Shown here piece after piece: positions 24,158 through 58,580 of a stretch of DNA of 64,000 nt. Every line of letters begins with the position of its first letter. Position 1 is the first letter of the stretch. Position numbers and translations under genes: made by a program. This stretch comes from a virus (lineage: Duplodnaviria; Caudoviricetes): positions 64,001-128,000 of the IMG/VR virus record IMGVR_UViG_3300033463_000004. One strand, 5' to 3'. The notes beneath the pieces were generated by a model. That model saw nothing but the letters and a program-made list of their open reading frames with translations, had not been told where the DNA came from and did no database searches.

Positions 24158-24733
24158 ATGCCAACGATTGGTGATGAAAATATTTCCTCGTTGTTGAATG
24201 AAGCAAATGGTCGTACTCGGTCATTCGTTGCTGAATGCATCAACGCATACAAAGCAATTCGATGGAAGACGGTATCGTTCATTATCCCGACTGAACCGAT
24301 ACCGTCACATCGTCCAAGATTATCTGGATATCGAGTATATGTGCCTGGCGCTGCAAAGAACCAAGCATTCTTCAATAAACATGTATTACCAACATTGAAT
24401 GGTTTGTTTATTACAACACCATGCAAAATTAAATCTGATATTTTTGTAAAGACACCGAAATCGTTTAACATGGCTCAGAAGATTCTTGCGGAGATGAGAA
24501 TCCTTCGTCCATGGGGTAATGTGGGTGATGTAGATAACTATGAAAAGAGTATCTATGATCAAATGCAACCAAACGAAAAACGTGGACATGTTGGTATTAT
24601 GCAAAATGATAGTCTTATCATTGAAGCGCACACGAATAAATATTATTCAATTACACCCCGTACAGAGATCACAATTTCTTTTATGGGAAAGATTCCAGAT
24701 AAATTGAAGAAAGTACTTCGCATGCGGGATTAA
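24158..24733 (+). CDS. rusA: RusA-family Holliday junction resolvase
   Basis: 'P.PSHRPR' N-terminus, catalytic 'GDVDNYEKSIYD', 'NDSLI', 'K.YS..PRTEI.I'. Confidence 0.85.
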   Translation: MPTIGDENISSLLNEANGRTRSFVAECINAYKAIRWKTVSFIIPTEPIPSHRPRLSGYRVYVPGAAKNQAFFNKHVLPTLNGLFITTPCKIKSDIFVKTPKSFNMAQKILAEMRILRPWGNVGDVDNYEKSIYDQMQPNEKRGHVGIMQNDSLIIEAHTNKYYSITPRTEITISFMGKIPDKLKKVLRMRD

Positions 24734-30497: not shown

Positions 30498-30549
30498 ACT
30501 TCGAATTAAAGCTTATATAAGCTTAATTTTAAAATAAGGAGTGATAAAT

Positions 30550-31506
30550 ATGTTGAAAGTTTTCAAGCCACGATTAACCCGTCCTGAAAAAGGTAATAAG
30601 TTTTATATTACAATAGATACAGGCGGTTACTCTGCAGCAATTGTTGGTAATCCCATTGATACATTATGCAATGTACTCGCAAACTGTGTTGGATATGCAT
30701 ATGGTCGTTTTAATGAAATTTCCAATAATACAAAAATGTCATATCTTGCACCAAGAAATGCAGAAGTATTTTGGGATATCGCAGGTCAACAAGGGTTTGA
30801 AAGATCGCAGACGCCAAAGATTGGTTCATGTATTGTTTGGCAAAAAGGTCCAACAAGAGACCCAAAAGGCGAAGATGGTGCTGGTCATGTTGCCATTGTT
30901 GAACAGGTGATTGACGAGAATACTGTTATCACATCTGAATCCGGTTATGGTTGTGCAACACCATTCTGGACACAAACAAGAAAACGTGGAGCTGATGGAA
31001 ACTGGGGAATGGGAACTGATTATAAATTCCTCGGTTTCATTCATCATCCTGATATTGATGCAAATACGAGAATTTATACTGGTGGAGACACTCCTGTTGA
31101 ACCGTATCTCGTTATGCTTGAAGCAGGTACACCGATTTACAATATCAACGGAACAGTTGTCGTTCAGTGTGGTACAATTACTGTTACGACAAAATATACA
31201 ATCGTTGATGAAATGATTGTTGATAAAAATCTGTATGGTAAATTGAAATCTGGTGCAGGCTGGGTTATTTTGAGGGGAATTGTTCCGAACCCGACTCCGA
31301 CTACTATGCAGCTTGGTGATTCTGGAGAGAATGTAAAACAACTTCAAAAGAAACTGGTTGAACTCGGATATATGTATAAAGATTGTGTGACAAGTACATT
31401 CGATAGATTAACATTATCCGGAGTAACCGGTTATCAGCTAGAAGCCGGACTTGCAGTTGATGGAATCTGTGGTCCAGCAACACAAAAATCATTAGGCTTA
31501 ATTTAA
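30550..31506 (+). CDS. Endolysin: CHAP + SH3-like + PG_binding_1
   Basis: 'NCVGYAYGR...NA..F...PKIGSCIVW...GHVAIVE...SES'; 'GKLKSGAGWV'; 'GDSGENVKQLQ..L..LGY...Q...GL.VDGICGPAT'. Confidence 0.9.
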   Translation: MLKVFKPRLTRPEKGNKFYITIDTGGYSAAIVGNPIDTLCNVLANCVGYAYGRFNEISNNTKMSYLAPRNAEVFWDIAGQQGFERSQTPKIGSCIVWQKGPTRDPKGEDGAGHVAIVEQVIDENTVITSESGYGCATPFWTQTRKRGADGNWGMGTDYKFLGFIHHPDIDANTRIYTGGDTPVEPYLVMLEAGTPIYNINGTVVVQCGTITVTTKYTIVDEMIVDKNLYGKLKSGAGWVILRGIVPNPTPTTMQLGDSGENVKQLQKKLVELGYMYKDCVTSTFDRLTLSGVTGYQLEAGLAVDGICGPATQKSLGLI

Positions 31507-31829: not shown

Positions 31830-34800
31830 TTATTCAAACATAGCAACGAGTTGTTCGATTAACATATCATCTTCATCACTGAATTCAGTATCTTCATCAT
31901 CGAAATAATAATCAATATATTCTGGAAATTCTTCAGAAATTTGATATGCTAAATTTCGAATAGAAGATGACTGTACTTTGATATCACTTACAAGAAACTC
32001 GTCTATGTAATTTGATAAATATTCCAGACCAGTTTTAATTGTGTATGTATTGATAATTTGTCCCTGATACACTTGATCAGGTGTTGTATTATCAAATATT
32101 TGTGCAGGATTTTGATCGAAGTCTGGAACAAACATGGGTCCATCAATTTTTTCATACGGAATATTTTCAAATAATTGTGGTGTGATATAATCTTCACCAT
32201 AACCACCGAACATTGATGGATCACTCATGAATTCAAGTATCGGAGATGGGTCATAGATTTCTGGAATATCAAAAGCGCTTGGAGTATATTCGTCACCAGA
32301 ACCGACATATCTAATTACAATTCCTTGGTTATAACCGTTGGAATTATATTTATTTATATCAATTCCAGATCCATTTGTAGGCATTGAACCATGGCTCAAA
32401 TAATAATTCGCGATGTTCTGACCCTTTACTGATTCAGAATTATTAGTAGGATCACCACCATTGAATCCATACCATTGTCCACCATATTGGAAAGCTGCCA
32501 TATGTGCATGCCACATAGTTTGATCATATCTACCATTTGCTTGTGATGGAAGTGTTATATCACCTGCTTGATATGTCCCATCATTTGCAATTATCCAATC
32601 TTTTGATTTTTTGCCATTTTTATCATAGATATTTGGGCGACCATCAGAGTTATTGATACCCCAACCACCGGGAGTACCATTTGCCCAACCCATATACATA
32701 TTTCCTTGATATGTGTTTGTATAATTACGATTGTTGTCTTTTGGTAAATAATAACCCATACGTTTTACTATTGCTGCCTGTGTACCAGTACACATCGCGG
32801 ACATATTATCAATGACCATTCCATCATCAAAGCGAACATTTTTCAATATAGCGCCGTGACCATATGGTCCATGATCTCGTTTTTGTGCTTTCAATGCAGC
32901 AAGAAATGTTTCAGATGCTGCAGTCAATACTTTCTTTTTTCCTCTTAATGAAGATGACGATGCTGACGATTTACCTTTTGATCGTTTTGTGGTTGACAAT
33001 GTTTTTGATTGTTGCTTCGTTCTGGATATTGAATTTGCTGACGATACCGATGTTCCATTATATCGCCAAATTTTTTTCATACGATCCATACCGCCATTGT
33101 ATACCCATGGTATATCTTTTTTGCCGTTCAAATATGCTACTGCTGCTGCAGGAGATTGAGCAATACCGCAACCACCATCGAGACCACGAGGAGAACCCTG
33201 CAGATCAACAATTGGCATTGTAAGGTGACCACTATTGTTACCTGGTGGCGGTGGAAATGCGAGAATATCACCCGGTTCTAGTTTTGATTTAGAATACTCC
33301 AAAACTGTCCAGTCCTTTGATGGAGTCTTTGCAGTAGGTGAATCGTATATTAATGTGTTTTTAGTCTGAGTACCCCATGTTCCTGAACGTAAACCAATAT
33401 CACCAACATCATACCCATTTGCATCTCTGAGAGTATAACCAAGTTCTTGTATTGCAGCGGACATTGTACCAGAGCAGTCTGGACGAATTTGTCTGGTATG
33501 ACCTGAACGAGTTGTAATTGAATTTGGCCATAAACCGTTGCTATATGTTACTGATGGATTTGTTTTTTGATATGCTTCGAAAATCTCGGCAGCTGATTCA
33601 ATTAAATCATCTTTTCCAAGATTACCTGAACCTTTGCGTGAAGAAGATTTTTTAACCTTACGACGTTTTGCTTTTGTCTTTGGACCGACATATCTGATCC
33701 AATAACTCATCGGTGGAGCAATTGCACCGAGTTGATCTGTCCATTGATGATCATTGAACCATCTTCCTGGAACTGGATTCAATTTGGTATCGGTTGGGAA
33801 TTGTCCATGTTTCAAATAGTATTCACCAAGTTTAACAGAACTCGCGAGAGAATCGTCAGCACCACCATTGAAACCAAACCAGTTTCCATCAGCACCTTGA
33901 TATGCTCCCATATGTGCGTGTGCGCCACCGGTTCCATTGAATGTAATGTCACCTGCTTGCGCTCCGCCAGGTCCTCCAAATATCCAATCCTGAGACACAT
34001 TACCATCACGATCATAGATGTTTGGATGACCATCAGAAGCACCCCAACCCCATGAACTTGAACCATGTTGTCCACTGACTTGATACATTTGGTCGTCACC
34101 TTGATATGTGTCAGAATATTGTCTACCATTTGATGGTAAATAATATCCCATACGTTTGACAATTGCTGCCATCATTGCTGTACAATGGACAGGCGAAATT
34201 TTGTCAATAACCATACCATCATCAAATTCAACATCAGTGACTGATGTACCATTCCAATGAAGATCACTACCTGCACGTTTTCTAACAGCAGTAAATACTT
34301 CAGATGCAGCTTGGAAAATATCTCCAGTGCCACCTTCATAATAGTATTCGTCATCGTAATATTCATCATCATCACGTGCTGCATTTATAAAATCTGCAAG
34401 AGCTTGGAAAAGTTTTCCAGAATTTGATTGTGCTTTTTTGTCTTCTTCTTTAAAGAATTTTTCAAAACTATTTTCACCATTATCATCTTTTCCAAATAAT
34501 GTTTCATTAATAAGACTTATTGCATCTGACTCTGTAGCGTCTGCATTTTTCTTTACTCGTTCTTTGACGATCTCAGCAGCGGCCATTGTCCAGTATTTTT
34601 CTTTGTCCTTTTCATATCTAGCACGATATTCTTCATCGGTTTCACCATGAAGTTGTTCATTGTTTATTGTTGATTTAAACAATTCAAAAGCACGATCATC
34701 AATTTCTTTACGTGCATCATCATCCAATCCAGCCGCGTCAAATTGTGCTTTTGTATAAGCTTCCTTATCTTTCGCCGTCTGTAGTTTTGTTTCGGTATCT

Positions 34801-37800
34801 GCCTGATCAATATCAAATAATGAGAAAATTCCAGAAGCTAATGATTTAATATTTGACAAAGCTTCTTGTACTGAATCATCAAACTTATATGGTGCACGTT
34901 CATCTCCAGAACCATAAATACCATCCATCGGAGATCCATTTAATTTGTTAATCGTTGTTTGTTTTTGATTTACAAGTTTCTTTTCTGTCTCATCACTCGT
35001 TGATGTCTTTTCACTCGTTCCAAGTAACTTATTCATTGAACTTGTGGCAAGAGCAATACTACTCTTCAATCCAGAAGTAACATTATCAACACCTGATTTG
35101 AATAAGTTCTCACCGGATTTTGCGATTTCTTTACCTTTTTCATATAAAGAACCACTGCCAAGTGATAATGTTAATACACCGATTGCTGATAATATCCAAC
35201 CATGAACGGTGATGATTGTTCCAAGACCAACTTGAAGAATACCTGTGATAATCTGAAACGCATTTGCAACACCTTGAATGATGGGAACAATTACAGTTTC
35301 CATCACAGCGGTCAACGGAACAACCAATATATCCAAAACATCTGTAACAATTTTGAGAATCGGTTTTAATATATCCATCATCTGTTCAAGCAATGGACCA
35401 ATTGCTTCGAATATCGGTTGCATGATGTCGATAATTGATATGACTATATCAGAAAGATAACTTACAATCTTATTCAGAACTTTCCCAATTGTTTTCATTG
35501 TTGGTTTGATTGCTTTGTACAATGATTGGAAAGCTTTGTTCAAAGGTTTCAATGAATTCGTCAATACTTTATGGATCATATCAGTAATCAGTTTGAAACC
35601 TTTCATTGATACAACAACTGTTAGAACAGCTTGTAATATTCCAGAAAGAACACCAAGTAATCCACCAAGTATCTTACCCATATCAAATGCAAGTGATTTC
35701 TTTTTCTGTTTCTGTTGTTGTTTTTTCTTTTCTTCTTCAGCCTTTTGTTTATTAAGAGCTGTATCAAATAAATTCTTAAATTGATCTTGAATATCATCAA
35801 TCACATTAAAAATCTTATTGAATACAGATCCCATAGGTGACGTTGAACTTAATATAGAATCAATCTTTTCTGATGATTGATCTGATAATGAACTTGGTGT
35901 AATTTTTGATTTTTCTTTTTGATGTTTTGAAAATGATGAAAGAACACCTTGACCAAATTCACTCTTGCCAAGTTTATCTTTTATCTTATTGCCAATATTT
36001 GAAATTGCTTTTCCTGGAGCGCTTTCTTTCAGCATATCTGTTAAACCACCAAACAATGAATCTGAATCATTAGTGGTAGCTGTCTTTTGTTCTGATTTCG
36101 TCGTTGTTTTTGTATGCTGCCGGGGCTTGACACGAGTTTTAATTCCAGTGAATCCTTCTTTAACAGCGTTTGCTCCAGTCTTCATTTTATTTACAGAATC
36201 AGAAAGCATGGATTTGACAAAGTTTGTCACACTATTATTCAAAAACAGTTTTGCACCAGAAATAATTTTTGTAAAGAAACTTTTTGCAGTTGATAATATA
36301 AACAGAAATGTTTTACCAATGAATGATTTCTTTTCTTCCTTCTTAGAACTGCGTTCGATTGAACCTGACACAATTGTTTTCAATCGTTGTTGAACATTAA
36401 AATTCCTCATTGTTCCAAGTTGCTGTGTAATATTATTTGCGTTTGTATTTCCAGAAGATGCAGACGCCATTAACATATACGATGCTTCATTGACTTTTTC
36501 TTCATCTTCTTCATCTGTTTTATTTTCAGATGTCTTTTCTGGCACAGTAACAACTGGTACATCCACATTCGTTTCAAGTTGTGGTTTTTCATTCATTTTG
36601 TCACGAGTTGTATGTTGTGCTTTAATAGATTTGAATCCTTTATTTGCATTAACAAAATAAACATTTACGCCACGATTCAGAATTTCAAATATCTTAGATA
36701 TAATCAATAAACGATTTCGTTGTTGTCCCATTAAAAGATTTTCCATTACATCAGTAGCGGAATCTTCGATTTTTTCATTCAAATCAGCAAAAGATGTAAT
36801 GGGTTTATCCAGCTCTTCTAATTGTTCTTTTGATAATGATTCACGTTGAACATATCCATCCCGAATCAATTGTCGAAGAGTCTTCCCCTCAAATTCAAAT
36901 CGAGATGAATCATACTTCATACGTTCCAACGCACGTAAATCAAACATTTTTTGTGTAAATTGTACATCAGTCACTTTTGAAGATTCTGCAATATTTCGTT
37001 TTGCTGCATTATCTAAACCATACAACGCACGATTAATTGCTGATGCAAAATTGGATCGATAATTTTTATCAGCAATCAATTTTGATGAATAAACTGATAT
37101 AATATCCAACCAATATTTTGCAGTTTTGCCTTTACCTTTTGCAAGTAATTCTGCAATGTGTAAATGTAATCCTTGATCTCCGCCATTGATAAAGAAATCT
37201 GGACTCAAATGATTCGTGGAATGTTCTGATGAATATATGTAATACACATATTGTTGCACCATAATACGGAGAACTTCACGCATATCTGCTGATGTAAATT
37301 CATCATCAATATTCTTTACAGATTCATATGTCTCTTTAATTTGTGATTCTGAAATAGATGTAGAATCGAAAGTAACATCAATCGATTTTACAAATTTATT
37401 TTCAATTGCAGCAGTTGTTAAACTTCCATTCGCAGCAATGTTATATTTCTTTCCAGTCAAAGCATTCGTAATCTGTTTCAAATAATCAGGAATAATCGAT
37501 ATGATTGTTTTACGAACCATATTATCGAATATAGCCGGATTTCGATCAAAACCACCTTCAACAAATCTTCCATAATCTTTTACATACGAACCATAAGGAT
37601 TCATATGTTTCTTTATGAATGGAATCTCAAATATTTTTGTAAGTAAATTATGCTGGAATGATTGTACTTTTTCATTTACTTTTCTATCAATAACAGTCAA
37701 TCCAGTCATATCCATCAATGATTCTGTAATTGATTTCGTAACTTGCTGGCGGTTATTCTTGATATAATTTGATAACGAATCAACTGTAAGTCTTCCAGAT

Positions 37801-38366
37801 GATTGATGTAATTGATTCTTTCTTTGTTCTTTTCGTATTTGGTCCAACATGTTGGATGAAGATTGAATTAATAAATCCAATTTCTTTGAAATTTCTAATG
37901 TGGTTGAATCAATCGTACGTAAACTTGCTAATGTTTCTGCAGAACGATCATTGATTGTACTGATAATCATCGATGCATTATATAATTTCGATTCAATTTG
38001 TTTTGATGCAATCTTATGCATTTCACGATTACGTGCACGTATAAGATCTTTCATGTTATCTGCATCAAGAACTTTTGTTTCTTGTTCTTCTGAATTATTA
38101 TATCTGAAACCCGCATCAAATTCTTCATCGTCAGTTTCTAATGGAGAAGTTGTATTATATGGATCTTCAGATTTATTTGAGAACCATTGGAATACAGAAC
38201 GAATATGTTTGTTATTACGTTTTAATTCAGAAACTTGAAGTGACGTGTTTTGATATGTTCCCATGATACTCGACTTAATCTTTGAGGCGTCTGTTGCAAT
38301 TTGTCGAACGGTTGTGTACGTCGACGAATGTGACAATATATCACTCATCAAGTTTGCCATATTCAT
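31830..38366 (-). CDS. Giant tape-measure/ejection-like protein B with three NlpC/P60/CHAP-like domains
   Basis: Amphipathic TMP-like repeats; Cys-His modules 'HCTAMMAAIVKRMGY..AGDI..HAH', 'PDCSG..PGDIL..GH' and 'MCTGTQAAIVKRMGY..AGDI..HAH'; start at 38366 or 38360. Confidence 0.75.
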   Translation of the reverse strand: MNMANLMSDILSHSSTYTTVRQIATDASKIKSSIMGTYQNTSLQVSELKRNNKHIRSVFQWFSNKSEDPYNTTSPLETDDEEFDAGFRYNNSEEQETKVLDADNMKDLIRARNREMHKIASKQIESKLYNASMIISTINDRSAETLASLRTIDSTTLEISKKLDLLIQSSSNMLDQIRKEQRKNQLHQSSGRLTVDSLSNYIKNNRQQVTKSITESLMDMTGLTVIDRKVNEKVQSFQHNLLTKIFEIPFIKKHMNPYGSYVKDYGRFVEGGFDRNPAIFDNMVRKTIISIIPDYLKQITNALTGKKYNIAANGSLTTAAIENKFVKSIDVTFDSTSISESQIKETYESVKNIDDEFTSADMREVLRIMVQQYVYYIYSSEHSTNHLSPDFFINGGDQGLHLHIAELLAKGKGKTAKYWLDIISVYSSKLIADKNYRSNFASAINRALYGLDNAAKRNIAESSKVTDVQFTQKMFDLRALERMKYDSSRFEFEGKTLRQLIRDGYVQRESLSKEQLEELDKPITSFADLNEKIEDSATDVMENLLMGQQRNRLLIISKIFEILNRGVNVYFVNANKGFKSIKAQHTTRDKMNEKPQLETNVDVPVVTVPEKTSENKTDEEDEEKVNEASYMLMASASSGNTNANNITQQLGTMRNFNVQQRLKTIVSGSIERSSKKEEKKSFIGKTFLFILSTAKSFFTKIISGAKLFLNNSVTNFVKSMLSDSVNKMKTGANAVKEGFTGIKTRVKPRQHTKTTTKSEQKTATTNDSDSLFGGLTDMLKESAPGKAISNIGNKIKDKLGKSEFGQGVLSSFSKHQKEKSKITPSSLSDQSSEKIDSILSSTSPMGSVFNKIFNVIDDIQDQFKNLFDTALNKQKAEEEKKKQQQKQKKKSLAFDMGKILGGLLGVLSGILQAVLTVVVSMKGFKLITDMIHKVLTNSLKPLNKAFQSLYKAIKPTMKTIGKVLNKIVSYLSDIVISIIDIMQPIFEAIGPLLEQMMDILKPILKIVTDVLDILVVPLTAVMETVIVPIIQGVANAFQIITGILQVGLGTIITVHGWILSAIGVLTLSLGSGSLYEKGKEIAKSGENLFKSGVDNVTSGLKSSIALATSSMNKLLGTSEKTSTSDETEKKLVNQKQTTINKLNGSPMDGIYGSGDERAPYKFDDSVQEALSNIKSLASGIFSLFDIDQADTETKLQTAKDKEAYTKAQFDAAGLDDDARKEIDDRAFELFKSTINNEQLHGETDEEYRARYEKDKEKYWTMAAAEIVKERVKKNADATESDAISLINETLFGKDDNGENSFEKFFKEEDKKAQSNSGKLFQALADFINAARDDDEYYDDEYYYEGGTGDIFQAASEVFTAVRKRAGSDLHWNGTSVTDVEFDDGMVIDKISPVHCTAMMAAIVKRMGYYLPSNGRQYSDTYQGDDQMYQVSGQHGSSSWGWGASDGHPNIYDRDGNVSQDWIFGGPGGAQAGDITFNGTGGAHAHMGAYQGADGNWFGFNGGADDSLASSVKLGEYYLKHGQFPTDTKLNPVPGRWFNDHQWTDQLGAIAPPMSYWIRYVGPKTKAKRRKVKKSSSRKGSGNLGKDDLIESAAEIFEAYQKTNPSVTYSNGLWPNSITTRSGHTRQIRPDCSGTMSAAIQELGYTLRDANGYDVGDIGLRSGTWGTQTKNTLIYDSPTAKTPSKDWTVLEYSKSKLEPGDILAFPPPPGNNSGHLTMPIVDLQGSPRGLDGGCGIAQSPAAAVAYLNGKKDIPWVYNGGMDRMKKIWRYNGTSVSSANSISRTKQQSKTLSTTKRSKGKSSASSSSLRGKKKVLTAASETFLAALKAQKRDHGPYGHGAILKNVRFDDGMVIDNMSAMCTGTQAAIVKRMGYYLPKDNNRNYTNTYQGNMYMGWANGTPGGWGINNSDGRPNIYDKNGKKSKDWIIANDGTYQAGDITLPSQANGRYDQTMWHAHMAAFQYGGQWYGFNGGDPTNNSESVKGQNIANYYLSHGSMPTNGSGIDINKYNSNGYNQGIVIRYVGSGDEYTPSAFDIPEIYDPSPILEFMSDPSMFGGYGEDYITPQLFENIPYEKIDGPMFVPDFDQNPAQIFDNTTPDQVYQGQIINTYTIKTGLEYLSNYIDEFLVSDIKVQSSSIRNLAYQISEEFPEYIDYYFDDEDTEFSDEDDMLIEQLVAMFE

Positions 38367-38445: not shown

Positions 38446-41400
38446 TTATCCGACAGACAGACGTTCGACCTGTCTGGGGATACCTTGGTCTGGAAAAGCA
38501 GCTTCATTTGATTGCTTACTTGTCCGTCCTGTTGTGGATGCAGTTTGTCCACGTTTTTTACGTTCTTTCATCAACTTTAACATTCCGGCCAACAACGATT
38601 CGATCTCTTCGGAACGAATGTTGTACGTATTCGACATTAACATATCGATGACAGCATCACCGGTATGATCAACTGCATAATTATTTACGACAGTCGGATA
38701 TGCTTGTTGTTCAATTTGATCCATTGAGAACAATGATGACAATCCTTGATCGAATCCACCACCATAATTTGTAGATGGTATAAATACAGAAGATACATCA
38801 CCATTGCCTTTATTATTCAGCATGTCAACATATGATTGACGTCTTGAATGATCATTTGTTTCAGTATATGTTGTCGTACCTGTTGTAGATGAATTGTTAA
38901 TCACATTTATACCATTATTCACTTGCGCAGATGAAACATCTGGCCAATAAATTGAGCCATCTTTATTTACTCTGATTCTACCTGCAGATTTATTATTCTT
39001 AAAATAAACATTTCCATCTGATGTATCATAGTATAATTTATATCCATTATGATATGCATTATTGTTGAAATCATTCGCCATGTCACCACGGGACAATTTA
39101 TTTGCATAAGAATTTGAATAATTTGTATAAATAGCTTGCCAAATTTTACGCAAATCAACATCAGATGTTCCTGTTGTAATAACACTACTCTGTTGTGCCG
39201 TACTACTTGATGAATTCTTAAGTTGTTGCTCACCGTTGATGAAACTTCTTGCATTTTCACCAGCGTGTGTTTTATAATAACTATCTGTATCAACATAAAT
39301 CTTCATGAACTTTCCGCTACCTAAGTTTGCTTGTCGTTCAACATATTTATGTTTATTTGTAAACGCTTGTGCATCAGCAGTTGCATTTCCAGTTGGTACA
39401 TAGTAATCAAATAATTTTTGATTAGCTTTGTTATAGGCCGTACCAGTTCGTCCTGTTATTGTTGTTGAATATCTATATGGGGTACCATCCGTTTTATCAG
39501 ACAATGTGGTGTATGATGATTGAGCCGATGTTGCTGCAGCCGGAACAGTTGCGCCGAATCCTTCAGATTCAGTCAATGATGTTGGTGATGTTGATATTGT
39601 CGATGATGTATTATAACGAATATTAGATCTTCTACCACCTTCATCAATATACCCTTCATCAAGCAACCAGTTGTATACACCAACAGCTGTTCCAATATAC
39701 TTACGCGGACCTTCCATTTGGTGAATGACTGCAGGAACCAAAGCTGTACGATACCAATGTTCAGATCCTTCAATCAAATCTTCTTTATTCATATATGGTC
39801 CATATCGATCACCGAAGTCAAGAGCCCATCCGTCTCTACCTGTCGCAGCCATATATGCTCGTAAATCAGCATCGTCATATTGGTTATGTGACACAAGAGC
39901 ACGACCGTCTTTTGTATCCTCGTCAAAATATGTGCGTTGGATATATTGCAATTGTTTTTCAACTGTATCGCCATAATCAACACTCGTATCAACCCAGTTC
40001 ATTAGACCGACTGCCTGTTGACTATTCGAGTCATATGTGACATTTAAGAGTGATTTATCACCCCATAATTTATCACCACCGTCTTCCCAGATGCCCATAG
40101 ATGTTATAGCAGCAACTTCCGGACCTGTTAAACCAGCATCAAAAGCAGTTTGCATGAATTTTGAAACACCCGTTTTGTTTTTATGGAAAGACCAAATATC
40201 ACCAGCTTCAAGATCACCCTCATATTCAATTTCGCCGTATGGTGCATTACTACGACTACCTTCATGCCATTTAAAGAATGCATGAGGGTTCAAAATTTCA
40301 CCAGTATCGCCATCCCGGATTTCATAGTGCAAATGCTGACCTGTCGATTCACCGGTACTTCCCATGATACCGAGTTGATCGCCGCCATAAACGTAGTCAC
40401 CGACTTTAACCAATGGACCAGGATCTTCGCGCATATGTGCATAAAGGTGAATGTCTCCACCTTCGTCCTGAATTTTGACATAAGTTCCGTATCCGTCGCC
40501 ATATGATGTCTTAGCAGTTCCTATAACTACACCATCGGTTGTTGAAAGTATTGGGATATCACCGCCTAAAGTGAAGTCAACACCGGAGTGTGCACGTCCA
40601 TCATTAGTACCTTCTGCATCCTTATCAACAGGACGTCCACGCCATCTGAACGGACTTGACATCATAGTTCCCAATAACATCTTATCCATCCACTCACCCA
40701 TGACTGTGTTCGGAACAGCTGTACTAGTCCATCCAGTTGCATCATTTTCAAATACAGAAGGCTGATATTCATCTGTATACAACCGTGCACCATTATCAGA
40801 ATAGAATCCAGCATCTTCGTCATCATCCCAATAGTCACCAATCATATCTTGTAACTTGGAGAAGAACATTCCTTGTGATACACTGTCATTGTGTTTCTTC
40901 ATGCCTTCTGTTAAGCTGTCAAACAATCCACCTTTTCGTTCACCGGTTTCAGAATCAAATTCTCCAAGATTCTTTTTGATAAATCCTGGTAATGTTTCAT
41001 CTGTATAGCCAGCAGCTTTCTTGGCAGCATCTTCGAGACGTTTTGTACCAGCGACAGTGATATAGTGATTGTAAGTTGTGGTTTTCTTAAATCGTTTTTC
41101 ATATTCAGCGTTCGTTTCGCCTTTATATTTTGGATTTTCTTGTTTAAATAATTCAAATGCTTCTTTTTCTAATTTTTGTTTTTCTTCATCTGTCATATCA
41201 CCAAGATCAGTCAATACTTTATCATATTTCAATTTATCTTGTTCATTCTTGAGTTTTGCTTCAGTGCTTTCTTCACCTGTAAAGATTCCAATGATACCAC
41301 CGACAAGATCTTTCAATGTTTGCAACGCTTCTTGCACTTCGTCAGAGAACGAATATGGATATGTAGCATCACCAGATCCGTATACATTGAAAGCACCACG

Positions 41401-44400
41401 CGGAACATCACCGGAACCATACAAACCAGCAACAGAATTTGCTGCAAGTGAAGAAATTGAACGTCGTTCAATACGTCCATTCATTGGGTTAGAAACAAAT
41501 GCTGTTCCACCAGAAGAACCGATAACATTCATAAAGTGATTATTACCACTTCTGGTTGTGAAGTCTGTACCACTTCCTATCACAGTGATTGGATTACGTG
41601 GTGAAGCTTGTTTTAATGATGCAGGTGTAACACCACCGGCACGGAGATTCATACCCATGGATCCAGCAGTGTTCATAAATCCAGCCACAGAAGTTCCCAT
41701 GTTTGGATTATATGCACCAGAAGATGCCATAGCAGAAGTTAATCCACGCGCATTAACTGATGTACCTGAGCGTCTTGCATAAGCATCTGCTAATGCAATA
41801 GGTCCACAACCACGAGAATTCATATTCATGAAGTTTCCATAGCGGTTCTGGTTTGCTCCTGCACCACCATAGATGTTTCTGATATCACCATTACCATATA
41901 CGCCATCCATCGGTGAACCATTTAATGTGCCAATAATTTCTTGACGTTTTTGGACTTTTGTTTCTTCTTCAGGTTCCTCATTAGAATCATTTGTACCTAA
42001 TAAATTATTCATTGTATTTGTAGCGAGAGCAATACTACTCTTCAATCCAGAAGAAACATTGTCTACACCTGATTTGAATAAGTTCTCACCAGATTCTGCA
42101 ATTGCTTTACCTTTTTCATATAATGACGTTCCACCGAGTATTGATGTCAACACACCAATACCAGTCAATGTCCATCCGAGAACAGTTATGATTGTACCAA
42201 GTCCAACTTGAAGAATACCTGTGATAATTTGTAATGAGTTTCCAACACCTTGTAGAATAGGAACGACCACTGTCTGCATGATGGCAGTCAACGGAACAAC
42301 AAGTATGTTGATCGTGTCAGTGATCATATCAAGAATCGGTTTCAAAATTGTAAGCATTTGTTCGAGTAACGGACCAATTGCTTCAATGATAGGTTGAATA
42401 ATCTTGATAACAGATTCAACAATCTCAACAACATATCCGACAAGTTGTGTTAATACACGTTGGATCGTTTTCATAACAGGTTTGATGGCCTTATACAACG
42501 ATTGGAAAGCTTTGTTCAGAGGTTTCAAAGCAGTTTTCAAAACATTCATCGCAAGATTCATAATGGATTTTACTGCTTTCATGGACAATACAACTGTCAA
42601 TACAGCTTGTAATAATCCACCAAGTATTCCAGTAATACCACCAAGAATCTTACCAATGTCGAAACCAATACCTTTCTTTACAGCTCCAGCGGCAGCAGAT
42701 GCAGCAGAACCAGTAGCTCCACCAGTCATGTCAGTTGTTGCAGGCATTTGTACATTTTGTCGTTGACTTGAAACATTTTCATTGATATCAGCTAAGCTAA
42801 CAGTTGATTGTGATGATGTATCATCACCAATTGATGGCATAGAAGAACCGGTACCAGATATAGTTTCGGATTTACCAGATATTTTTGCAATACCTTCTTT
42901 TACGACGTCACCGATTCCAGCAAGTTTATTGACGATCGTTCCAAAGATAGATCCAGTACCGTCTTTGCTCTTCAAGATATCAACAATCGATTTTGTCATC
43001 TGATCACTCAGCGTCTGAGGTTTCATTTCTTTATTTGATTTTTTCTTTTCAAATGCAGATATAAAACCTTTACCAAAATCAGTTTGTTTAAATTTTTCGA
43101 CAAAATTGTTCATTGCTCGGGTGATTGCATTACCCTTTTTATTTTCTTCTTTTTGTTCGTTAATGTCACCACGTATCTTTTTGATTTCTTGTAATACTTC
43201 AGTATCACGACCACTCTTGATATCTTTACCTTCGCCCATATCTGATAATACAGGTGCACCAAGATCAATCAATGATGACGCAGAAACATCTGTCGTCAAC
43301 GTCTGTTTTGTTGATGTTGGTGTTTCATTGATATCAGATAACATACCATTCAAACGTCTGGATTCTTTATTTTCTCTCATTCTACCAAAGATACCAGATG
43401 ATTCATCCGAACCAAAGAATCCTTCTTTGATAGCATTTGCACCACCAAGAATTCTTTGTCCTGATTGTCTCAAACTGTTGATGATAGGTGAAAGTAATTT
43501 CTTTCCAAGTGTCGTAATGAATGTTTTTGCAGATTGTAATTTTGGTAAAATAAATCCTTTGACGATTCCGAATCCCCAAGTCAATATTTTACCAAGTTTT
43601 GATTGTGCTGGTTTCTTATTTTCTGCACGTTGTAAAGTTCCTTCAACAACTTTCGACAAACGCGCTTTCAGTTTTGGATTCTTGATTTCACTGATCTGTT
43701 GCATCAGTGGTCCAGTATCTTCTTTGGTATCACCATCTTGAACAGATGCATTCATTGCAGCCAGAACAGAATCAGCAATGTATTTATCATTCTTATCGTC
43801 TTCAGAATCACCTAATCCCGCAGCAGTACGTTGTGCCATTACACGATTATAGTCGATTGAAGCAGAATCAATCGTCATTGCTTTTAATGAAGTCATGTCA
43901 GTAGAAAGACGTTCCTTCATTTTATTGATTGGCTTCATCACAAAATTCTTTGCAGAATTAATAGTATCCGACAAAGGATTACCAGATGATGGCATATCTG
44001 GTTGCTGATGATCACCATCTGTTTCTTCACCAGAAATTGTTGGAATTTGAACAGATGGGATCGGAGTAGGTTGTTCATGAGTCAGAGTTGATTGTGGTGA
44101 TGCTGGTGTGTTTTGCTGTGCTTTCTGTAATTCAATTGGTACATATGGTTTATTTCTTCGACGTACAGCATATACATTAACACCACGATTCAGTATTGTG
44201 AATATAGATGCCAAGTAATCAACTGTTGATGCTGTTACATCACGGAAAGTTACACCAATATTACCAATCAACTCAGATTGTTTAATACGTTCACGACGTG
44301 CTTGTTTCAATGCTTCGTCGGATGCACGTGAATTTGGATCAACCCATTTGGGAATATCGCTTCGTTTGATTTCACCTGCTTCAGCACGCTCATTCCATGT

Positions 44401-45978
44401 ACGGTCATCTTTACCAGAAGCATTTTTAACATATCCACCAACAATATTACTGACCATTTCATCGGTAATTTCGCCAATGTCATATGTAACAGTTGCAGTT
44501 TCAGCATATCGTTTTGCACGAGAATGTGAACTTGTTGCGCCTTGACGGATTGTACGAGCAAAGGCATCACGTGAATTACTGTCAGTCATCAATTTCGTTA
44601 TAATCAATTGAATGACTGATGTCCAATATGCACGACCGTGTTTGTTGTTGTCACCTTGTGTCAAATAATCAATTGCTTGATCATTGACTTCAGGCAATCC
44701 ACCATTTTCAAACATTTTTCCTTGTGTTGCACGACCAGATACACGCATCTCATGGAATATGTATAAAGATACAAGAACACGTTGTGCAATAAACACATCA
44801 TTCTTATCAATGTCAGAAGATGCTTGTTTCATCATTTCGTCTATTCGACGTGAATTAAAACCACTTTGAATTGTTGATGAAAATACATTTTGGAATTCAC
44901 GAGGACGTTCCGTCGACAAACTACCTTCGGATGATACATACAAATTCTCACCAGTTAACGCAGCAGTGATTCTTCTCAAATAGCCAGGAATAACATCAAT
45001 AATCGTTTTACGTGTCATATTATCAAAGACAGCTTTTTCACGATTGTATTGATTGTCGATATATGTTGAATAATCGCGATTTTTTTCACGTGCAGACAAA
45101 TCACCAAATAACTTTTTGAATTTATCCCAATCCAAAAGTTTTGATAATAAATTATTTTGTGCATTGTTTACACGTTCATCGATTGCATCACGAATTTCAT
45201 CAATTGAACGATTATCGAGAATTCGAAGTTTTTTATCCGCAGCCAAACCGGTCATCAAACCTGCTAAAGAACCAAAACCTTCCGCTTTATTACTTGATGC
45301 TTGGAATATCATCGGAAGCATCTCTGCACCAGTTTTCAACAAACTTAATTCAGTTTGATAAGGAAGATTTTGTTTCAAATAATTAATAGTATTCCCGAGT
45401 GTCAAATTTCCAGATGAATCGAATAATGATTGTTGACGTGCCCGTTCTTGTGTTGCAACTGTACTTAATTCGATTAATTTATCAAGTTTTCCGGAAATCG
45501 TTTGTAAAGATGAATTGATATTACCCAAAGATGATAAGATTTCCGATGAACGGGTATTCATCGTCGTAATGATTTCAGATGCAGTCATCGCAGAAGCTTC
45601 TGTTTGTTTACCTGCAATCTGATACATGGAGCTGACTTGACCTTTGGCAATATCCTTCATGCCATCATAATCAAGAACTTTTGACGACGATGTATCCGAG
45701 TCTCCATCATCAAAATTAAATCCGGCATCAAATTCATCATCATTATCATTTTCAAATGATGATTTCTCACCGAATTCAGATCCACGATGGAAGAACCAAT
45801 CTGTTACCTTTTTAAAACCAGATGAATTTCGAATCTCACGATATTTATCTTGAGCAGTCTTAGCACCACCCATCAATGTATCACGTATATTCTCTGCATC
45901 TGATTTCAAATCCGATAAAGATTCAGGAGCAACTGATGAAACAAAACCCTTCGTGAAATCAAGCATCAAATTTGCCAT
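38446..45978 (-). CDS. Giant tape-measure/ejection-like protein A with C39-like peptidase, M23 peptidase and lysozyme-like domains
   Basis: 'RGCGPIALA..HFM..VSNP' (C39-like); 'HSGVD..YAHM..STGQHLHYE' (M23); 'AAI...IWED...GLMNW...QL.YI' (phage tail lysozyme-like); GAAAGGGGTG RBS favours 45978. Confidence 0.8.
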   Translation of the reverse strand: MANLMLDFTKGFVSSVAPESLSDLKSDAENIRDTLMGGAKTAQDKYREIRNSSGFKKVTDWFFHRGSEFGEKSSFENDNDDEFDAGFNFDDGDSDTSSSKVLDYDGMKDIAKGQVSSMYQIAGKQTEASAMTASEIITTMNTRSSEILSSLGNINSSLQTISGKLDKLIELSTVATQERARQQSLFDSSGNLTLGNTINYLKQNLPYQTELSLLKTGAEMLPMIFQASSNKAEGFGSLAGLMTGLAADKKLRILDNRSIDEIRDAIDERVNNAQNNLLSKLLDWDKFKKLFGDLSAREKNRDYSTYIDNQYNREKAVFDNMTRKTIIDVIPGYLRRITAALTGENLYVSSEGSLSTERPREFQNVFSSTIQSGFNSRRIDEMMKQASSDIDKNDVFIAQRVLVSLYIFHEMRVSGRATQGKMFENGGLPEVNDQAIDYLTQGDNNKHGRAYWTSVIQLIITKLMTDSNSRDAFARTIRQGATSSHSRAKRYAETATVTYDIGEITDEMVSNIVGGYVKNASGKDDRTWNERAEAGEIKRSDIPKWVDPNSRASDEALKQARRERIKQSELIGNIGVTFRDVTASTVDYLASIFTILNRGVNVYAVRRRNKPYVPIELQKAQQNTPASPQSTLTHEQPTPIPSVQIPTISGEETDGDHQQPDMPSSGNPLSDTINSAKNFVMKPINKMKERLSTDMTSLKAMTIDSASIDYNRVMAQRTAAGLGDSEDDKNDKYIADSVLAAMNASVQDGDTKEDTGPLMQQISEIKNPKLKARLSKVVEGTLQRAENKKPAQSKLGKILTWGFGIVKGFILPKLQSAKTFITTLGKKLLSPIINSLRQSGQRILGGANAIKEGFFGSDESSGIFGRMRENKESRRLNGMLSDINETPTSTKQTLTTDVSASSLIDLGAPVLSDMGEGKDIKSGRDTEVLQEIKKIRGDINEQKEENKKGNAITRAMNNFVEKFKQTDFGKGFISAFEKKKSNKEMKPQTLSDQMTKSIVDILKSKDGTGSIFGTIVNKLAGIGDVVKEGIAKISGKSETISGTGSSMPSIGDDTSSQSTVSLADINENVSSQRQNVQMPATTDMTGGATGSAASAAAGAVKKGIGFDIGKILGGITGILGGLLQAVLTVVLSMKAVKSIMNLAMNVLKTALKPLNKAFQSLYKAIKPVMKTIQRVLTQLVGYVVEIVESVIKIIQPIIEAIGPLLEQMLTILKPILDMITDTINILVVPLTAIMQTVVVPILQGVGNSLQIITGILQVGLGTIITVLGWTLTGIGVLTSILGGTSLYEKGKAIAESGENLFKSGVDNVSSGLKSSIALATNTMNNLLGTNDSNEEPEEETKVQKRQEIIGTLNGSPMDGVYGNGDIRNIYGGAGANQNRYGNFMNMNSRGCGPIALADAYARRSGTSVNARGLTSAMASSGAYNPNMGTSVAGFMNTAGSMGMNLRAGGVTPASLKQASPRNPITVIGSGTDFTTRSGNNHFMNVIGSSGGTAFVSNPMNGRIERRSISSLAANSVAGLYGSGDVPRGAFNVYGSGDATYPYSFSDEVQEALQTLKDLVGGIIGIFTGEESTEAKLKNEQDKLKYDKVLTDLGDMTDEEKQKLEKEAFELFKQENPKYKGETNAEYEKRFKKTTTYNHYITVAGTKRLEDAAKKAAGYTDETLPGFIKKNLGEFDSETGERKGGLFDSLTEGMKKHNDSVSQGMFFSKLQDMIGDYWDDDEDAGFYSDNGARLYTDEYQPSVFENDATGWTSTAVPNTVMGEWMDKMLLGTMMSSPFRWRGRPVDKDAEGTNDGRAHSGVDFTLGGDIPILSTTDGVVIGTAKTSYGDGYGTYVKIQDEGGDIHLYAHMREDPGPLVKVGDYVYGGDQLGIMGSTGESTGQHLHYEIRDGDTGEILNPHAFFKWHEGSRSNAPYGEIEYEGDLEAGDIWSFHKNKTGVSKFMQTAFDAGLTGPEVAAITSMGIWEDGGDKLWGDKSLLNVTYDSNSQQAVGLMNWVDTSVDYGDTVEKQLQYIQRTYFDEDTKDGRALVSHNQYDDADLRAYMAATGRDGWALDFGDRYGPYMNKEDLIEGSEHWYRTALVPAVIHQMEGPRKYIGTAVGVYNWLLDEGYIDEGGRRSNIRYNTSSTISTSPTSLTESEGFGATVPAAATSAQSSYTTLSDKTDGTPYRYSTTITGRTGTAYNKANQKLFDYYVPTGNATADAQAFTNKHKYVERQANLGSGKFMKIYVDTDSYYKTHAGENARSFINGEQQLKNSSSSTAQQSSVITTGTSDVDLRKIWQAIYTNYSNSYANKLSRGDMANDFNNNAYHNGYKLYYDTSDGNVYFKNNKSAGRIRVNKDGSIYWPDVSSAQVNNGINVINNSSTTGTTTYTETNDHSRRQSYVDMLNNKGNGDVSSVFIPSTNYGGGFDQGLSSLFSMDQIEQQAYPTVVNNYAVDHTGDAVIDMLMSNTYNIRSEEIESLLAGMLKLMKERKKRGQTASTTGRTSKQSNEAAFPDQGIPRQVERLSVG

Positions 45979-46016
45979 ATCAACTTCACCCCTTTCAATA
46001 TATAATAATACCAAAA

Positions 46017-50368: not shown

Positions 50369-52642
50369 TTAAGCGTTCTTGGTGTAGTAGGTGTTAGCTG
50401 CCCATGTCGGTGCAACACCAGTAACCGCAGTGCGCTCACCCTCTTCGGTGGTAGCGACATAGTAGGTGCTGTAGGTGGTATCCCAATCAGCCGGCTTGGT
50501 CTGAATTGCTTCGCCACCGGTTGCAGCTGTGAAGTAGAACTTCGTGGTGTCGAACTCAGGAGCAACTGCGGTAACAGCCTCCATTGCAGTACCAGCCGCA
50601 TTCACCTTCCAGTAGTTGCCGTAAGTCGTTGCCCAGTTTGCCGGCTCCTCAGTAGTCACAGTGTAACCCTCGGTCGGATCAACCGGAGGAGTCGGGGTAT
50701 CGCCACCAGAAACCAGACCAGCGTTAGAATCTGGAACAAGAACAGTGTTCTTGCAGATCAGGCGAGCCTGAATACCCTGGATTGCGATGGTACGATACTG
50801 CGAAGATGTGGTAACGAGAACAGCTGCGCCGCCAGGATTCTGAGCGTCTGCATATGCTGCGTTCTCCGGAGAGTTGGTCAGGTGACGAGCGAAACGGAGG
50901 TGCTTGTAGGAGATGTGGAACTTATCCATCGGATAAGCGACGATCTTGTAGAAGTACTCACGAGACACATCACCTTCCTGTGCGCCATCCTGGTACGGTT
51001 CGATGTTGATGTAAGCATCGACACGGTTGGAAGCGACAACACGGATCGGAATATCGGTATCGGTCAGAACACCGAATGCATGGTTCATCAGAACGCCACC
51101 AATCTCAGTGGACTTCTTGACAGTCCAGGTGACGAACTTCTGCAGCAGACGAGCAGCCTTCGGGTTTGCATAGACGACAAATCCGAGGTTGTCGAGCTTA
51201 CCACGATCACACAGCTCATAGATCAGAGATGCGATACCGTTGTGGATGATGTTGGTTCTGTACTCGAACGGATCACCAGCAAAGCTCGGAGAGATTGCAG
51301 TCGGATCAAGATCGACGTACTCAGTAGCAGTGTAGCTCTCGAGAGCCCAGATGTCAGACTCTGCGCCGTCATACTTATTGAACTCTTCATCCAGGAACTG
51401 GAGAATGTACTCATCCTCGAACATTTCCTGTGCAGTGATGAGCTCCTGAACCAGTCTGTTGTACAGGTTGAAGTTCAGTGAAGAGTTAGCCTCAGCAAAG
51501 TCTTCAACGGTGAACGGAAGCTGGAAGCGAACGCCGTCAGCGATCTGGAACTTACGGATTTCCGGATACTCACGGAAGCCGATGGTTCTCAGGTTGGTCT
51601 CATTGGAAACGTGACCGCTTACATAGATACCAGTGATCGAACCACAGGAAGTAGCAGTGATCGTACCCTTGATGAAGTCGATAACACCAGAGAGACGATC
51701 TGCGACACCAGTAACAACCTCACCAGTGGTCTTACCGTTCTCATCGACAACAGCAAGCTTCATGTCGGAGGTAATACCACCATTCAGGAAGACACCACCG
51801 GTCTGGATATCGATCTGGATTCCACCATGCGGCAGACGAACCTTCTTACCATCGATCTGAACGTACTGAATACCGAAATCATAGGAGATACGGGTACGAA
51901 CATTCGGGGTGATGGTAGTCGGCTGATCGTCATCACCAAGCAGCCAATTGAAGAGAGAATACTTCTTGTTGGTTGCAGCCTGGATAGTAGACAGAGTCAG
52001 AACGTCCTTATCATTCAGACGCAGACCCTTACCAGCATTCCACAGCTTCTTCCACAGTGGCTGACCATTGTCATCCTTCTGGAAGTAGATTGCCGGGGTC
52101 TCATACTCCTCACCAGTCTGGTTGTTAACCAGATACTTGATGAAGATACGCTGCTCGATGTTCACCGAAGAAGCGGTCTGAACAGGAATGATATCCTTAC
52201 CGAGGAAGCGGATGTACTGCTTAATCAAAGCCGGGAAGTCAAGAGTAGACAACGGCAGATAGTTTGAAACGTTGTAAGACTCCTGAACCATGAAGGACTT
52301 GACAGAAGTATCCCAAGCCTCTTCAAGTTGACTTGCAACAGACTCGAGATGGAACTTCTCAGAAGAATCCGCCTCTGATGCAGTATTTCTCAGCTCGTCA
52401 AGGATCGGATCGAGGAGCAGAGTTTTATACTCCATCATCACGTTCTTATCTTCGAGCATCTTCTTGACGTCTTTCATGACATTGACGCCCATACGACTCT
52501 GCATCGTTCCAACAGTATCTTCCAATCTGTTGTCAAATGTGTCGCGGAGACCCATCAGTTCGGATTCAGATGCGCCATTGACGAGGCTCTGCTGTTCCTG
52601 GAACCATGAGTTGTGGGTACCAGCATTACGACTGAATGCCAT
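50369..52642 (-). CDS. Major capsid protein precursor with C-terminal extension
   Basis: 757 aa, strongest codon bias in the window, near the prohead protease; HK97-like backbone helix 'LVQELITAQEMFEDEYILQFL' and 'FVVYANPKAARLL'. Confidence 0.8.
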   Translation of the reverse strand: MAFSRNAGTHNSWFQEQQSLVNGASESELMGLRDTFDNRLEDTVGTMQSRMGVNVMKDVKKMLEDKNVMMEYKTLLLDPILDELRNTASEADSSEKFHLESVASQLEEAWDTSVKSFMVQESYNVSNYLPLSTLDFPALIKQYIRFLGKDIIPVQTASSVNIEQRIFIKYLVNNQTGEEYETPAIYFQKDDNGQPLWKKLWNAGKGLRLNDKDVLTLSTIQAATNKKYSLFNWLLGDDDQPTTITPNVRTRISYDFGIQYVQIDGKKVRLPHGGIQIDIQTGGVFLNGGITSDMKLAVVDENGKTTGEVVTGVADRLSGVIDFIKGTITATSCGSITGIYVSGHVSNETNLRTIGFREYPEIRKFQIADGVRFQLPFTVEDFAEANSSLNFNLYNRLVQELITAQEMFEDEYILQFLDEEFNKYDGAESDIWALESYTATEYVDLDPTAISPSFAGDPFEYRTNIIHNGIASLIYELCDRGKLDNLGFVVYANPKAARLLQKFVTWTVKKSTEIGGVLMNHAFGVLTDTDIPIRVVASNRVDAYINIEPYQDGAQEGDVSREYFYKIVAYPMDKFHISYKHLRFARHLTNSPENAAYADAQNPGGAAVLVTTSSQYRTIAIQGIQARLICKNTVLVPDSNAGLVSGGDTPTPPVDPTEGYTVTTEEPANWATTYGNYWKVNAAGTAMEAVTAVAPEFDTTKFYFTAATGGEAIQTKPADWDTTYSTYYVATTEEGERTAVTGVAPTWAANTYYTKNA

Positions 52643-57692: not shown

Positions 57693-58580
57693 TCATTTAA
57701 GTCCGCGATTCATCAGAATATCCAATGCTTCACGTCTGACTTCGCCACGAAGTGGAATACGCATTTTGCATCCATCGGCTTGTTCAACAACAATGGATTC
57801 ATTTTGAATACCCATCAATTCATCAACCGAAATTTCGAACGATTCGCAGATTGCACGCATATCTTCAGATTGCTCTGAACAATATTGTGCAAGATTCTTC
57901 AAGAAGATGACACATTCAGATGTTTTCTCCGGAATGACACTTTCTTGATGAATGATTGGTGCAACATCGCCATCTGCTCCTTCATGTGAAGGATAATCAA
58001 CCATGTCATATGTGATAACTTTTGTAACACGCATGTTTGGTTGATTATATCCCGCATTCGGAATCATTGTACCGAGTAAACGAACAGAGAATGATGGGAC
58101 CATACCGAGATCAATAATCTCTTCAGCAACTTGTTGACCACATGCACATCCAGGATCGGTTGTGATAATCGCTTTATAACGATCACCTTCCAAACGATTC
58201 TTTCTGAGAATGTGTGAACAACGTGTCGGCTCTGGAATTGTCATACGAATATCAGTTAAACGTTCACCGGCAATATCCGGATTCGGATGATTCAATTCAC
58301 CACGCCAATCATTCTTACGTTTTAATTCCGCAATACGTTCATCTTTATCCACGACAGCACAATAGTTGACGGGATCATAGCGGCGTCTCATGCGGTTATA
58401 ACAGCCGAATGTTTGAACAGTTGCATCAAATTCGACATATGCATGCCCATTCACAGAACGGAACTGTTTGAAACCACGGGGATCATCCTTATAACTTGCA
58501 AGACCACATTCAATTGGTGCTTCTTGCACATAACACGCAGTCTCATACTTGTTGCTCTGTGTGCTTTTCTTTACAAGCAT
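57693..58580 (-). CDS. Prohead core protease (T4 gp21/phiKZ gp175-like)
   Basis: 'NR..RRY', 'GELNHP', 'PSFSVR', 'ITYDMVDYPSH' with His/Ser/Asp catalytic motifs. Confidence 0.9.
   Translation of the reverse strand: MLVKKSTQSNKYETACYVQEAPIECGLASYKDDPRGFKQFRSVNGHAYVEFDATVQTFGCYNRMRRRYDPVNYCAVVDKDERIAELKRKNDWRGELNHPNPDIAGERLTDIRMTIPEPTRCSHILRKNRLEGDRYKAIITTDPGCACGQQVAEEIIDLGMVPSFSVRLLGTMIPNAGYNQPNMRVTKVITYDMVDYPSHEGADGDVAPIIHQESVIPEKTSECVIFLKNLAQYCSEQSEDMRAICESFEISVDELMGIQNESIVVEQADGCKMRIPLRGEVRREALDILMNRGLK

Follow-up and report, generated by a model that had tools for sequence, protein, structure and literature searches.

Layout of the tandem giant genes A and B

We analyzed a stretch of 64,000 nucleotides, called the window here, which covers positions 64,001 to 128,000 of IMG/VR virus record IMGVR_UViG_3300033463_000004 (Duplodnaviria; Caudoviricetes). 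Two giant genes, A and B, lie in tandem in the window, both on the minus strand (Table 1). Gene A contains a cysteine peptidase-like module that is bordered by copies of a short motif, Y-G-[SN]-G-D, and the paralog B carries the motif and lacks the module. An initial annotation, made from the letters of the window, had proposed that this module excises itself and cuts both proteins at the motif. The four residues G-[SN]-G-D are referred to below as the tag.

The longest open reading frame (ORF) of A ran from a TTG at 46014 to 38446 and encoded 2522 amino acids (aa). The ATG at 45978 is probably the true start of A, since the residues that follow it, MANLM, are the same as those at the start of B and of database entry P0003 (2510 aa), and P0003 was identical to A from MANLM onward. 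Residue numbers of A in the text and in Table 1 follow the frame that begins at the TTG; counted from the ATG, all of them are 12 lower.

Both proteins had the same layout, beginning with an N-terminal domain and a long linker, which were followed by a hydrophobic membrane-type core, a variable block of wall hydrolases, and a tail of 120-157 residues. PHROG tape-measure families matched the hydrophobic core only (E values of 5e-8 to 7e-5). From the tag at the junction to the tag near the C-terminus, the hydrolase block measured 853 residues in A and 865 residues in B, and the cargo domains between these tags varied among relatives, in which M23, Phage_lysozyme2, SH3, CHAP and NlpC/P60 domains were found. 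In B, the end of the second NlpC/P60-like domain (window 32970-33010, residues ~1786-1798) read ...RMKKIWRYNGTS; a third cargo domain lay beyond it, and the tag sat after this third domain. Several B-type relatives read ...KMKKIWRYTGSGD at the position of B residues ~1786-1798, and their cargo stopped there.

We recognised no gene for a sheath, a tube or a hub in the neighbourhood of A and B. The conserved neighbours of the two genes were the capsid gene and a gene for a 252-aa virion structural protein. Judged from their sequences, A and B appear to be tandem giant tape-measure-like proteins for envelope penetration in a phiKZ-like jumbo phage, and for both of them a role in the tail and a role in the head or in ejection were considered.

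Table 1. Position of the features of genes A and B and of two head genes in the window
Feature	Position	Strand	Description
Gene A	38446..45978	minus	Giant tape-measure-like protein; 2510 aa counted from ATG at 45978
Hydrophobic membrane-type core of A	~41980..42627	minus	Residues ~1130-1345; PHROG tape-measure matches
N-side tag of A, YGNGD	41884..41898	minus	Residues 1373-1377; closes the conserved block NGSPMDG-x
C39-like cysteine peptidase module of A	41422..41883	minus	Residues 1378-1531, 154 aa; AlphaFold2, Foldseek
Gln1389 of A	41848-41850	minus	Presumed oxyanion-hole residue; at least 90% conserved in 108 sequences; 14 residues before Cys
Cys1403 codon of A	41806..41808	minus	Predicted catalytic residue; motif G-C-G-P, invariant in 108 sequences
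His1493 codon of A	41536..41538	minus	Predicted catalytic residue; N-N-H-F, invariant in 108 sequences
Asn1509 codon of A	41488..41490	minus	Presumed triad member; S-N-P, invariant in 108 sequences
C-side tag 1 of A, YGSGD	41407..41421	minus	Residues 1532-1536; right behind the last strand of the fold
C-side tag 2 of A, YGSGD	41368..41382	minus	Residues 1545-1549; precedes the block PY-x-F-x-D-x-V common to B
Peptidase_M23 cargo domain of A	40309..40593	minus	Residues 1808-1902; Pfam E 1.2e-20
C-terminal tag of A, GNGD	38797..38808	minus	Residues 2403-2406; 119 residues before the end
Gene B	31830..38366	minus	Paralog of A without the protease module; 2178 aa; NlpC/P60-like Cys-His cargo domains
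Junction tag of B, YGSGD	34902..34916	minus	Residues 1151-1155; core/cargo boundary
C-terminal tag of B, VGSGD	32292..32306	minus	Residues 2021-2025; 157 residues before the end, past the last cargo domain
Major capsid protein	50369-52642	minus	757 aa
Prohead protease	57693-58580	minus	

Fold and active site of the protease module

The structure of the module was predicted with AlphaFold2 from an alignment of 108 copies. The model had a mean predicted local distance difference test (pLDDT) score of 81.7, and its core blocks reached 86-97. When the model was compared with the PDB by Foldseek, the C39 domains of PCAT1, ComA and LahT came out on top, with E values of about 1e-4 and template modeling (TM) scores, normalised by target, of 0.66-0.74, and almost every top hit was a C39 domain. 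The Z scores given by VIA-align, an independent all-against-all aligner, were 15.4 for PeiR, 15.1 for ComA, 14.3 for PCAT1, 13.6 for LahT and 13.6 for staphopain C. The listed fold matches belonged to clan CA; no clan CE protease (adenain or pS273R of African swine fever virus, ASFV) was among them, and such a list cannot exclude a family.

The active site was examined in the alignment of 108 copies. Invariant positions were the motif G-C-G-P, His in N-N-H-[YF] and Asn-Pro in S-N-P, and a profile of the 108 homologs set GCGP on the region of the catalytic Cys of ComA (E 0.07). Searches of Pfam and of the PDB sequences with the single module sequence returned C39 matches below threshold only, and curated sequence models did not support formal membership of the C39 family. 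The module lies inside a protein of 2522 aa and is not the N-terminal domain of an ATP-binding cassette (ABC) exporter. The predicted structure, its matches by Foldseek and VIA-align and the conserved Gln, Cys, His and Asn give good support to a papain fold of the C39-like kind whose catalytic set is intact. A C39-like peptidase with a papain fold is also what the initial annotation had proposed for this part of A.

Distribution of the tag in the genome

The tag was counted in the ORF set of the whole 262,694-bp genome (237 ORFs, 82,787 aa). Six copies of G[SN]GD were present, and every one of them lay in A or B, which together account for 5.7% of the residues. No copy occurred in the capsid protein, the prohead protease or any other ORF of the genome. 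The codons differed among the six copies, so the repeat has been kept at the level of the protein and not of the DNA, and a recent DNA repeat was ruled out as the source of the copies.

A reads LNGSPMDGV-YGNGD before the module, and its second C-side tag (residues 1545-1549) is followed by PYSFSDEVQEAL. The junction of B reads LNGSPMDGI-YGSGD and continues with PYKFDDSVQEAL. The stretch that A has in addition to B was exactly 172 aa long (A residues 1378-1549), as had been reported in the initial annotation; the positions that it gave for YGNGD, for both copies of YGSGD, for the Cys codon and for the YGSGD of B were also correct. Beyond these, we found two further tags, at residue 2403 of A and at residue 2021 of B, about 120-157 residues from the C-termini. 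The structural alignments of the module reached as far as residue 176 of the model, the second Gly in C-side tag 1, and the tag therefore starts where the fold ends.

A different motif was found in the proteins of the head. The sequence hydrophobic-Q-E-[AGS] occurred at residue 119 of the capsid protein, at residue 18 of the prohead protease and six times in an 813-aa protein encoded outside the window, and these positions are probably sites of the prohead protease. As the tag was missing from the capsid protein, from the protease itself and from every other ORF, the prohead protease was rejected as the simplest reader of G[SN]GD. A and B each contain one V-Q-E-A just past the junction. This sequence was rejected as a prohead-protease site, because B-type relatives have VLD, VSD, VTE or VRD at that position. 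With G[SN]GD confined to A and B and another tag present in the head proteins, the second maturation system, independent of the prohead protease, that had been suggested before is plausible.

Conservation of the module and the tag among relatives

When 1.84 billion cluster representatives were searched exhaustively, the module was detected in 143 of them. In giant proteins 2000-3750 aa long, its position was about 1300-2100 residues from the start; the remaining entries were shorter and appeared to be truncated, and no small free-standing module protein was found among the 143. A word-indexed search gave 348 relatives, the best 120 of which were listed; the contigs of these 120 were up to about 295 kb long, and one was labelled as a Paludibacteraceae metagenome-assembled genome. 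In GenBank phages, no match was obtained for gene A by Megablast, nor for the module or for residues 1-1370 by tblastn.

The position of the tag was determined in 201 full-length module-bearing cluster representatives using the pattern G[SANGH]GD. The tag stood directly behind the module in 96% of these relatives, with the consensus G-[LI]-Y-G-S-G-D, and just ahead of the module in 68%. A tag 80-175 residues from the C-terminus was present in 86%, as against a background of 1.9% per window of equal size in the same proteins. A second copy of the C-side tag was seen in a minority of relatives. The module and the block on its N-side had the highest mean identity of all parts of A (68% and 69%, respectively), while the remaining regions were at 20-54%. 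Conservation of the motif in homologs, on which the earlier proposal depended, was thus found at the domain borders of the 201 relatives.

In 18 relatives (P0042, P0045, P0050, P0074, P0120-P0132 and others), the module occurred a second time, at about residue 600-830 and ahead of the hydrophobic core. GCGP was kept in all 18 of these extra N-terminal copies. A G-x-G-D lay just downstream of 10 of the 18, six times in the form LGL[YF]GSGD. The tag thus appears to travel with the module.

The opposite case was provided by five distant clusters (P0263-P0267), which were found with a profile of the N-terminal domain (E 7e-22 to 1e-6) and have no module. None of them had a tag at these borders; four contained no G[SANGH]GD at all, and the fifth had a single GAGD elsewhere. 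Co-occurrence of module and tag, a check that the initial annotation had recommended, is in line with processing and points that way, in a sample of module-less proteins that is small.

A further set of weak matches (P0268-P0286; about 3130 aa, on contigs of about 255 kb) contained a Peptidase_C39_2 domain, recognised at the level of Pfam, at residues 2437-2540, directly before a Phage_lysozyme2 domain. This domain is inside the cargo block, so C39-like domains can also be cargo.

B-type paralogs and loss of the module

A search with B gave 19 B-type clusters, and the module was present in none of them. The junction tag was found in 16 of the 19 and the C-terminal tag also in 16; 13 clusters had both, and these 13 contained almost no other motif of this kind. 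At the junction, GSPMDG-xx-GSGD-xxx-PYKF was invariant in 16 aligned B-type proteins. The C-terminal tag of B-type proteins was located 129-160 residues from the end, and its flanks differed among B-type lineages while GSGD itself was constant. In several B-type proteins the C-terminal tag came after ...KIWRY; in B, NGTS and one more cargo domain stood between ...KKIWRY and the tag. The variable flanks and the shift relative to KIWRY indicate that the tag marks the border between cargo and tail and belongs to no single domain.

The order of the genes was the same in all four contigs examined, with a gene for a 252-253-aa protein, the A-type gene and the B-type gene. In the window and in L004, the A-type gene directly upstream of the B-type gene was confirmed to contain the module, and the same is known for P0044 in L001. 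Two other relatives had one giant gene each, with the module present. Altogether, the module was present in 230 of the 230 A-like relatives retrieved.

We also constructed a quick maximum-likelihood tree from 40 sequences of the N-terminal domain. The B-type proteins formed one clade (support 100), and its sister group (support 97) was made up of the A-type proteins from duplicated genomes. The A-type and B-type proteins of duplicated genomes were nested among single-copy lineages that bear the module, and three module-less distant proteins fell outside. The simplest reading of this tree is that the module is ancestral, and that, after a single duplication, B lost it once and cleanly between the copies of the tag on either side. 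Insertion of the module into A, as the initial annotation had described the difference between the two genes, was ruled out by the tree and by the single-copy genomes that carry the module; the polarity is the reverse, and it is B that lost the module.

The cores of A and B (window 41980-42700 and 34917-35630) were 68% identical to each other within this genome, compared with 52-57% identity to their orthologs. The same excess of within-genome likeness over ortholog likeness was seen in five other genomes. A patch of 30 codons in the core (A residues 1301-1330) had 91% nucleotide identity to B. Either exchange of sequence by gene conversion or co-evolution through joint assembly could account for the likeness of the cores.

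Proposed processing of A and B

We propose that the C39-type module of A cuts both proteins at the tags, its own protein in cis and B in trans, and we give this proposal an even chance of being right. Of the interpretation put forward in the initial annotation, the C39-type module beside conserved border tags has stood, and the insertion of the module into A has not. According to the model, the peptidase would recognise the short sequence hydrophobic-[YFV]-G-[SNA]-G-D. A would be cut in cis on both sides of the module and ahead of the C-terminal tail, and B would be cut in trans at the two equivalent borders. Three products would be expected, namely the N-terminal part with the core (about 1150-1375 residues), the block of hydrolases (about 850-870 residues) and a short fragment from the C-terminus, and the module itself would be released where an N-side tag exists. 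A cut at G-S|G would give a G-[GAS] pair of the double-glycine type at P2-P1 and a hydrophobic residue at P4; a cut at G-S-G|D is equally possible. We favour tail assembly as the time of cleavage, on the model of the T5 and lambda tape measures.

A broader version is more doubtful, and we offer it tentatively. In a large clade of uncultivated jumbo phages of gut and rumen, the tape-measure-like protein may be a self-processing polyprotein with a lineage-specific tag, whose paralog is served in trans in a mixed A/B assembly. The module would excise itself and free a swappable hydrolase block and a C-terminal assembly piece, and the cores of A and B, evolving in step, would hold the mixed assembly together.

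Comparison with known processing systems

The C39 leader peptidases (the PEP domain of ComA, PCAT1 and LahT150; PDB 3k8u, 5xe8, 6v9z and 6mpz) have the same papain-type fold as the module, with Gln, Cys, His and Asp or Asn in the same order and at like spacing. Substrates of the C39 family have small residues (G-G, G-A or G-S) before the cut, and the G-S-G of the tag resembles these sites. The leader peptidases differ from the module in several respects. They are fused to ABC transporters, whereas the module is embedded in a virion-type protein of about 2500 aa. Their third catalytic residue is Asp, and that of the module is Asn. Unlike in leader-peptidase substrates, an invariant Asp and an aromatic residue are present in the tag and a leader helix is absent, and the presumed substrates of the module are its own protein and a paralog.

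Processing during assembly is also known for the tape measure gpH of lambda and for gp5 of T4. For phage T5, the passage on the tape-measure protein pb2 describes a cut exactly between the hydrophobic stretch and the muralytic domain (10.1101/2022.09.20.507954). The junction tag of A and B has the same architectural place. The Tal proteins of the lactococcal phages Tuc2009/TP901-1 are described in a corresponding passage as processed with release of the C-terminal hydrolase (PMC6115969). In the T5, lambda, T4 and Tal proteins, a C-terminal part is removed or split off by processing while the tail is assembled, as proposed for A and B. The passages name no dedicated protease; in A, by contrast, a candidate protease lies inside the substrate, the tag is repeated, and a paralog may be cut in trans.

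The MARTX toxins and the large clostridial toxins are giant, membrane-translocating proteins with swappable cargo that is freed by an internal cysteine protease domain (CPD, family C80). They are alike in outline to A, but the CPD has another fold (clan CD, against clan CA for the module), and there is no homology between them. The CPD also differs from the module in the type of its site (Leu in MARTX) and in its activation by a eukaryotic cofactor. The ASFV protease pS273R and the adenovirus protease (clan CE) cut virion precursors at Gly-Gly-X or (M/I/L)-X-G-X|G. The hydrophobic-Y-G-S-G of A and B fits (M/I/L)-X-G-X|G on paper; these proteases, however, have another fold, are separate gene products and belong to eukaryotic viruses, unlike the module in A.

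The pseudomurein endoisopeptidases PeiW and PeiR (family C71; PDB 8z4h) gave the best VIA-align match to the module (Z 15.4 over 137 residues, with a root mean square deviation of 2.5) and are likewise encoded by a phage or prophage. They act on archaeal pseudomurein and have their own wall-binding repeats, in contrast to the M23 and NlpC/P60-like cargo of A and B, which is directed at bacterial murein. No pseudomurein-binding Pfam domain was found in A or B.

In the literature, no phage paper on YGSGD was found, nothing relevant was found that joins a tape-measure protein to C39, and the tape-measure paper on P23-45 does not mention processing.

Weighing of the alternative explanations

Several observations weigh against processing by the module. 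Cleavage of A and B is a prediction from sequence, and the phage is uncultivated. The Pfam models for C39 scored below their cut-offs, with 13.2 bits for PF13529 (cut-off 24, E 0.13) and 11.3 bits for PF03412 (cut-off 22, E 0.31). The fold does not separate a processing peptidase from a wall peptidase, and PeiR tied for first place among the matches; the fold also resembles C39-type toxins. One third of the relatives lack the N-side tag. The best-conserved tag ends the fold, so the conservation of G-L-Y may be partly structural. The comparison with module-less proteins consisted of five distant clusters only. A complex prediction with the module and alignments of the B junction gave a score of 0.01, which counts neither for nor against binding.

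The alternative that survives best, although we consider it unlikely, is that the module is a further virion-associated wall peptidase beside the membrane core, and that the tags are cut by another protease of host or phage or are conserved linkers. The top match by VIA-align is itself a prophage pseudomurein isopeptidase, and phage lysins such as mycobacteriophage Lysin A and a Gordonia phage endolysin contain similar C39-like domains. The C39_2 domain next to the tail lysozyme in the cargo of the separate giant-protein lineage speaks for the same role and, like the lysins, against processing, and wall hydrolases are abundant elsewhere in A and B. However, the cargo hydrolases swap freely among relatives, whereas the module is fixed in place and best conserved. 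The attachment of the tag to nearly every module, its presence beside part of the duplicated copies and its absence from the distant module-less relatives also argue against a wall peptidase, which would leave the reader of a tag that is unique to A and B in the genome unexplained.

It is quite improbable that the tags are docking or turn motifs, bound by a tail chaperone, the tube or the hub and never cut, and that B lacks the module through a recombination deletion between copies of the motif. Such a role would suit the B-type junction, which is conserved far past the tag as in a folded or bound element, and B did lose the module between flanking copies; patches of gene conversion between A and B would also agree with recombination. 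Against this stand the variable flanks of the constant GSGD near the C-terminus, the intact and invariant catalytic set that adjoins the tags, the co-occurrence of tags and protease, and the differing codons of the copies, hence no recent DNA repeat.

Very little speaks for the view that the module is ejected as an effector protease and cuts a protein of the host after entry, like the C39-type toxins Cpe1 and CdiA-CT, with tags that only release or dock it. A papain-like cysteine protease toxin (PDB 9l5u) and CdiA-CT (PDB 8ssk and 8ssm) are among the best matches (Foldseek rank 3, VIA-align Z 12.6-12.7), and the place beside a membrane-inserting core would suit delivery, but the tags in B and at the C-terminal borders would be unexplained. 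We found no immunity-like partner, the module has no known host target, and the explanation overlaps with self-processing if the module frees itself.

Implications of the proposed processing by the module

Peptidases of the C39 type, processed tape-measure proteins and self-processing polyproteins are each already known; their combination is new. The enzyme, the tag and two candidate substrates are encoded in one locus, and the proposal that the module cuts A and B can be tested although the phage is uncultivated. If it is true, the missing protease for the processing of tape-measure proteins would be supplied in at least this group of phages. The design would explain how wall-hydrolase cargo is swapped between fixed borders, and would offer a rule by which the many giant genes of gut and rumen jumbo phages can be read. 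The compact pair of protease and tag might also serve as a laboratory tool. If the module is instead a wall peptidase, the conserved tag remains a short linear motif that needs a reader.

Other genes syntenic with the giant genes

Two genes on the plus strand of the window were syntenic with the giant genes in relatives. The first (30541-31506) encodes a 321-aa protein whose C-terminal 70 residues matched endolysin families, and the second (24158-24733) encodes a RusA-like resolvase.

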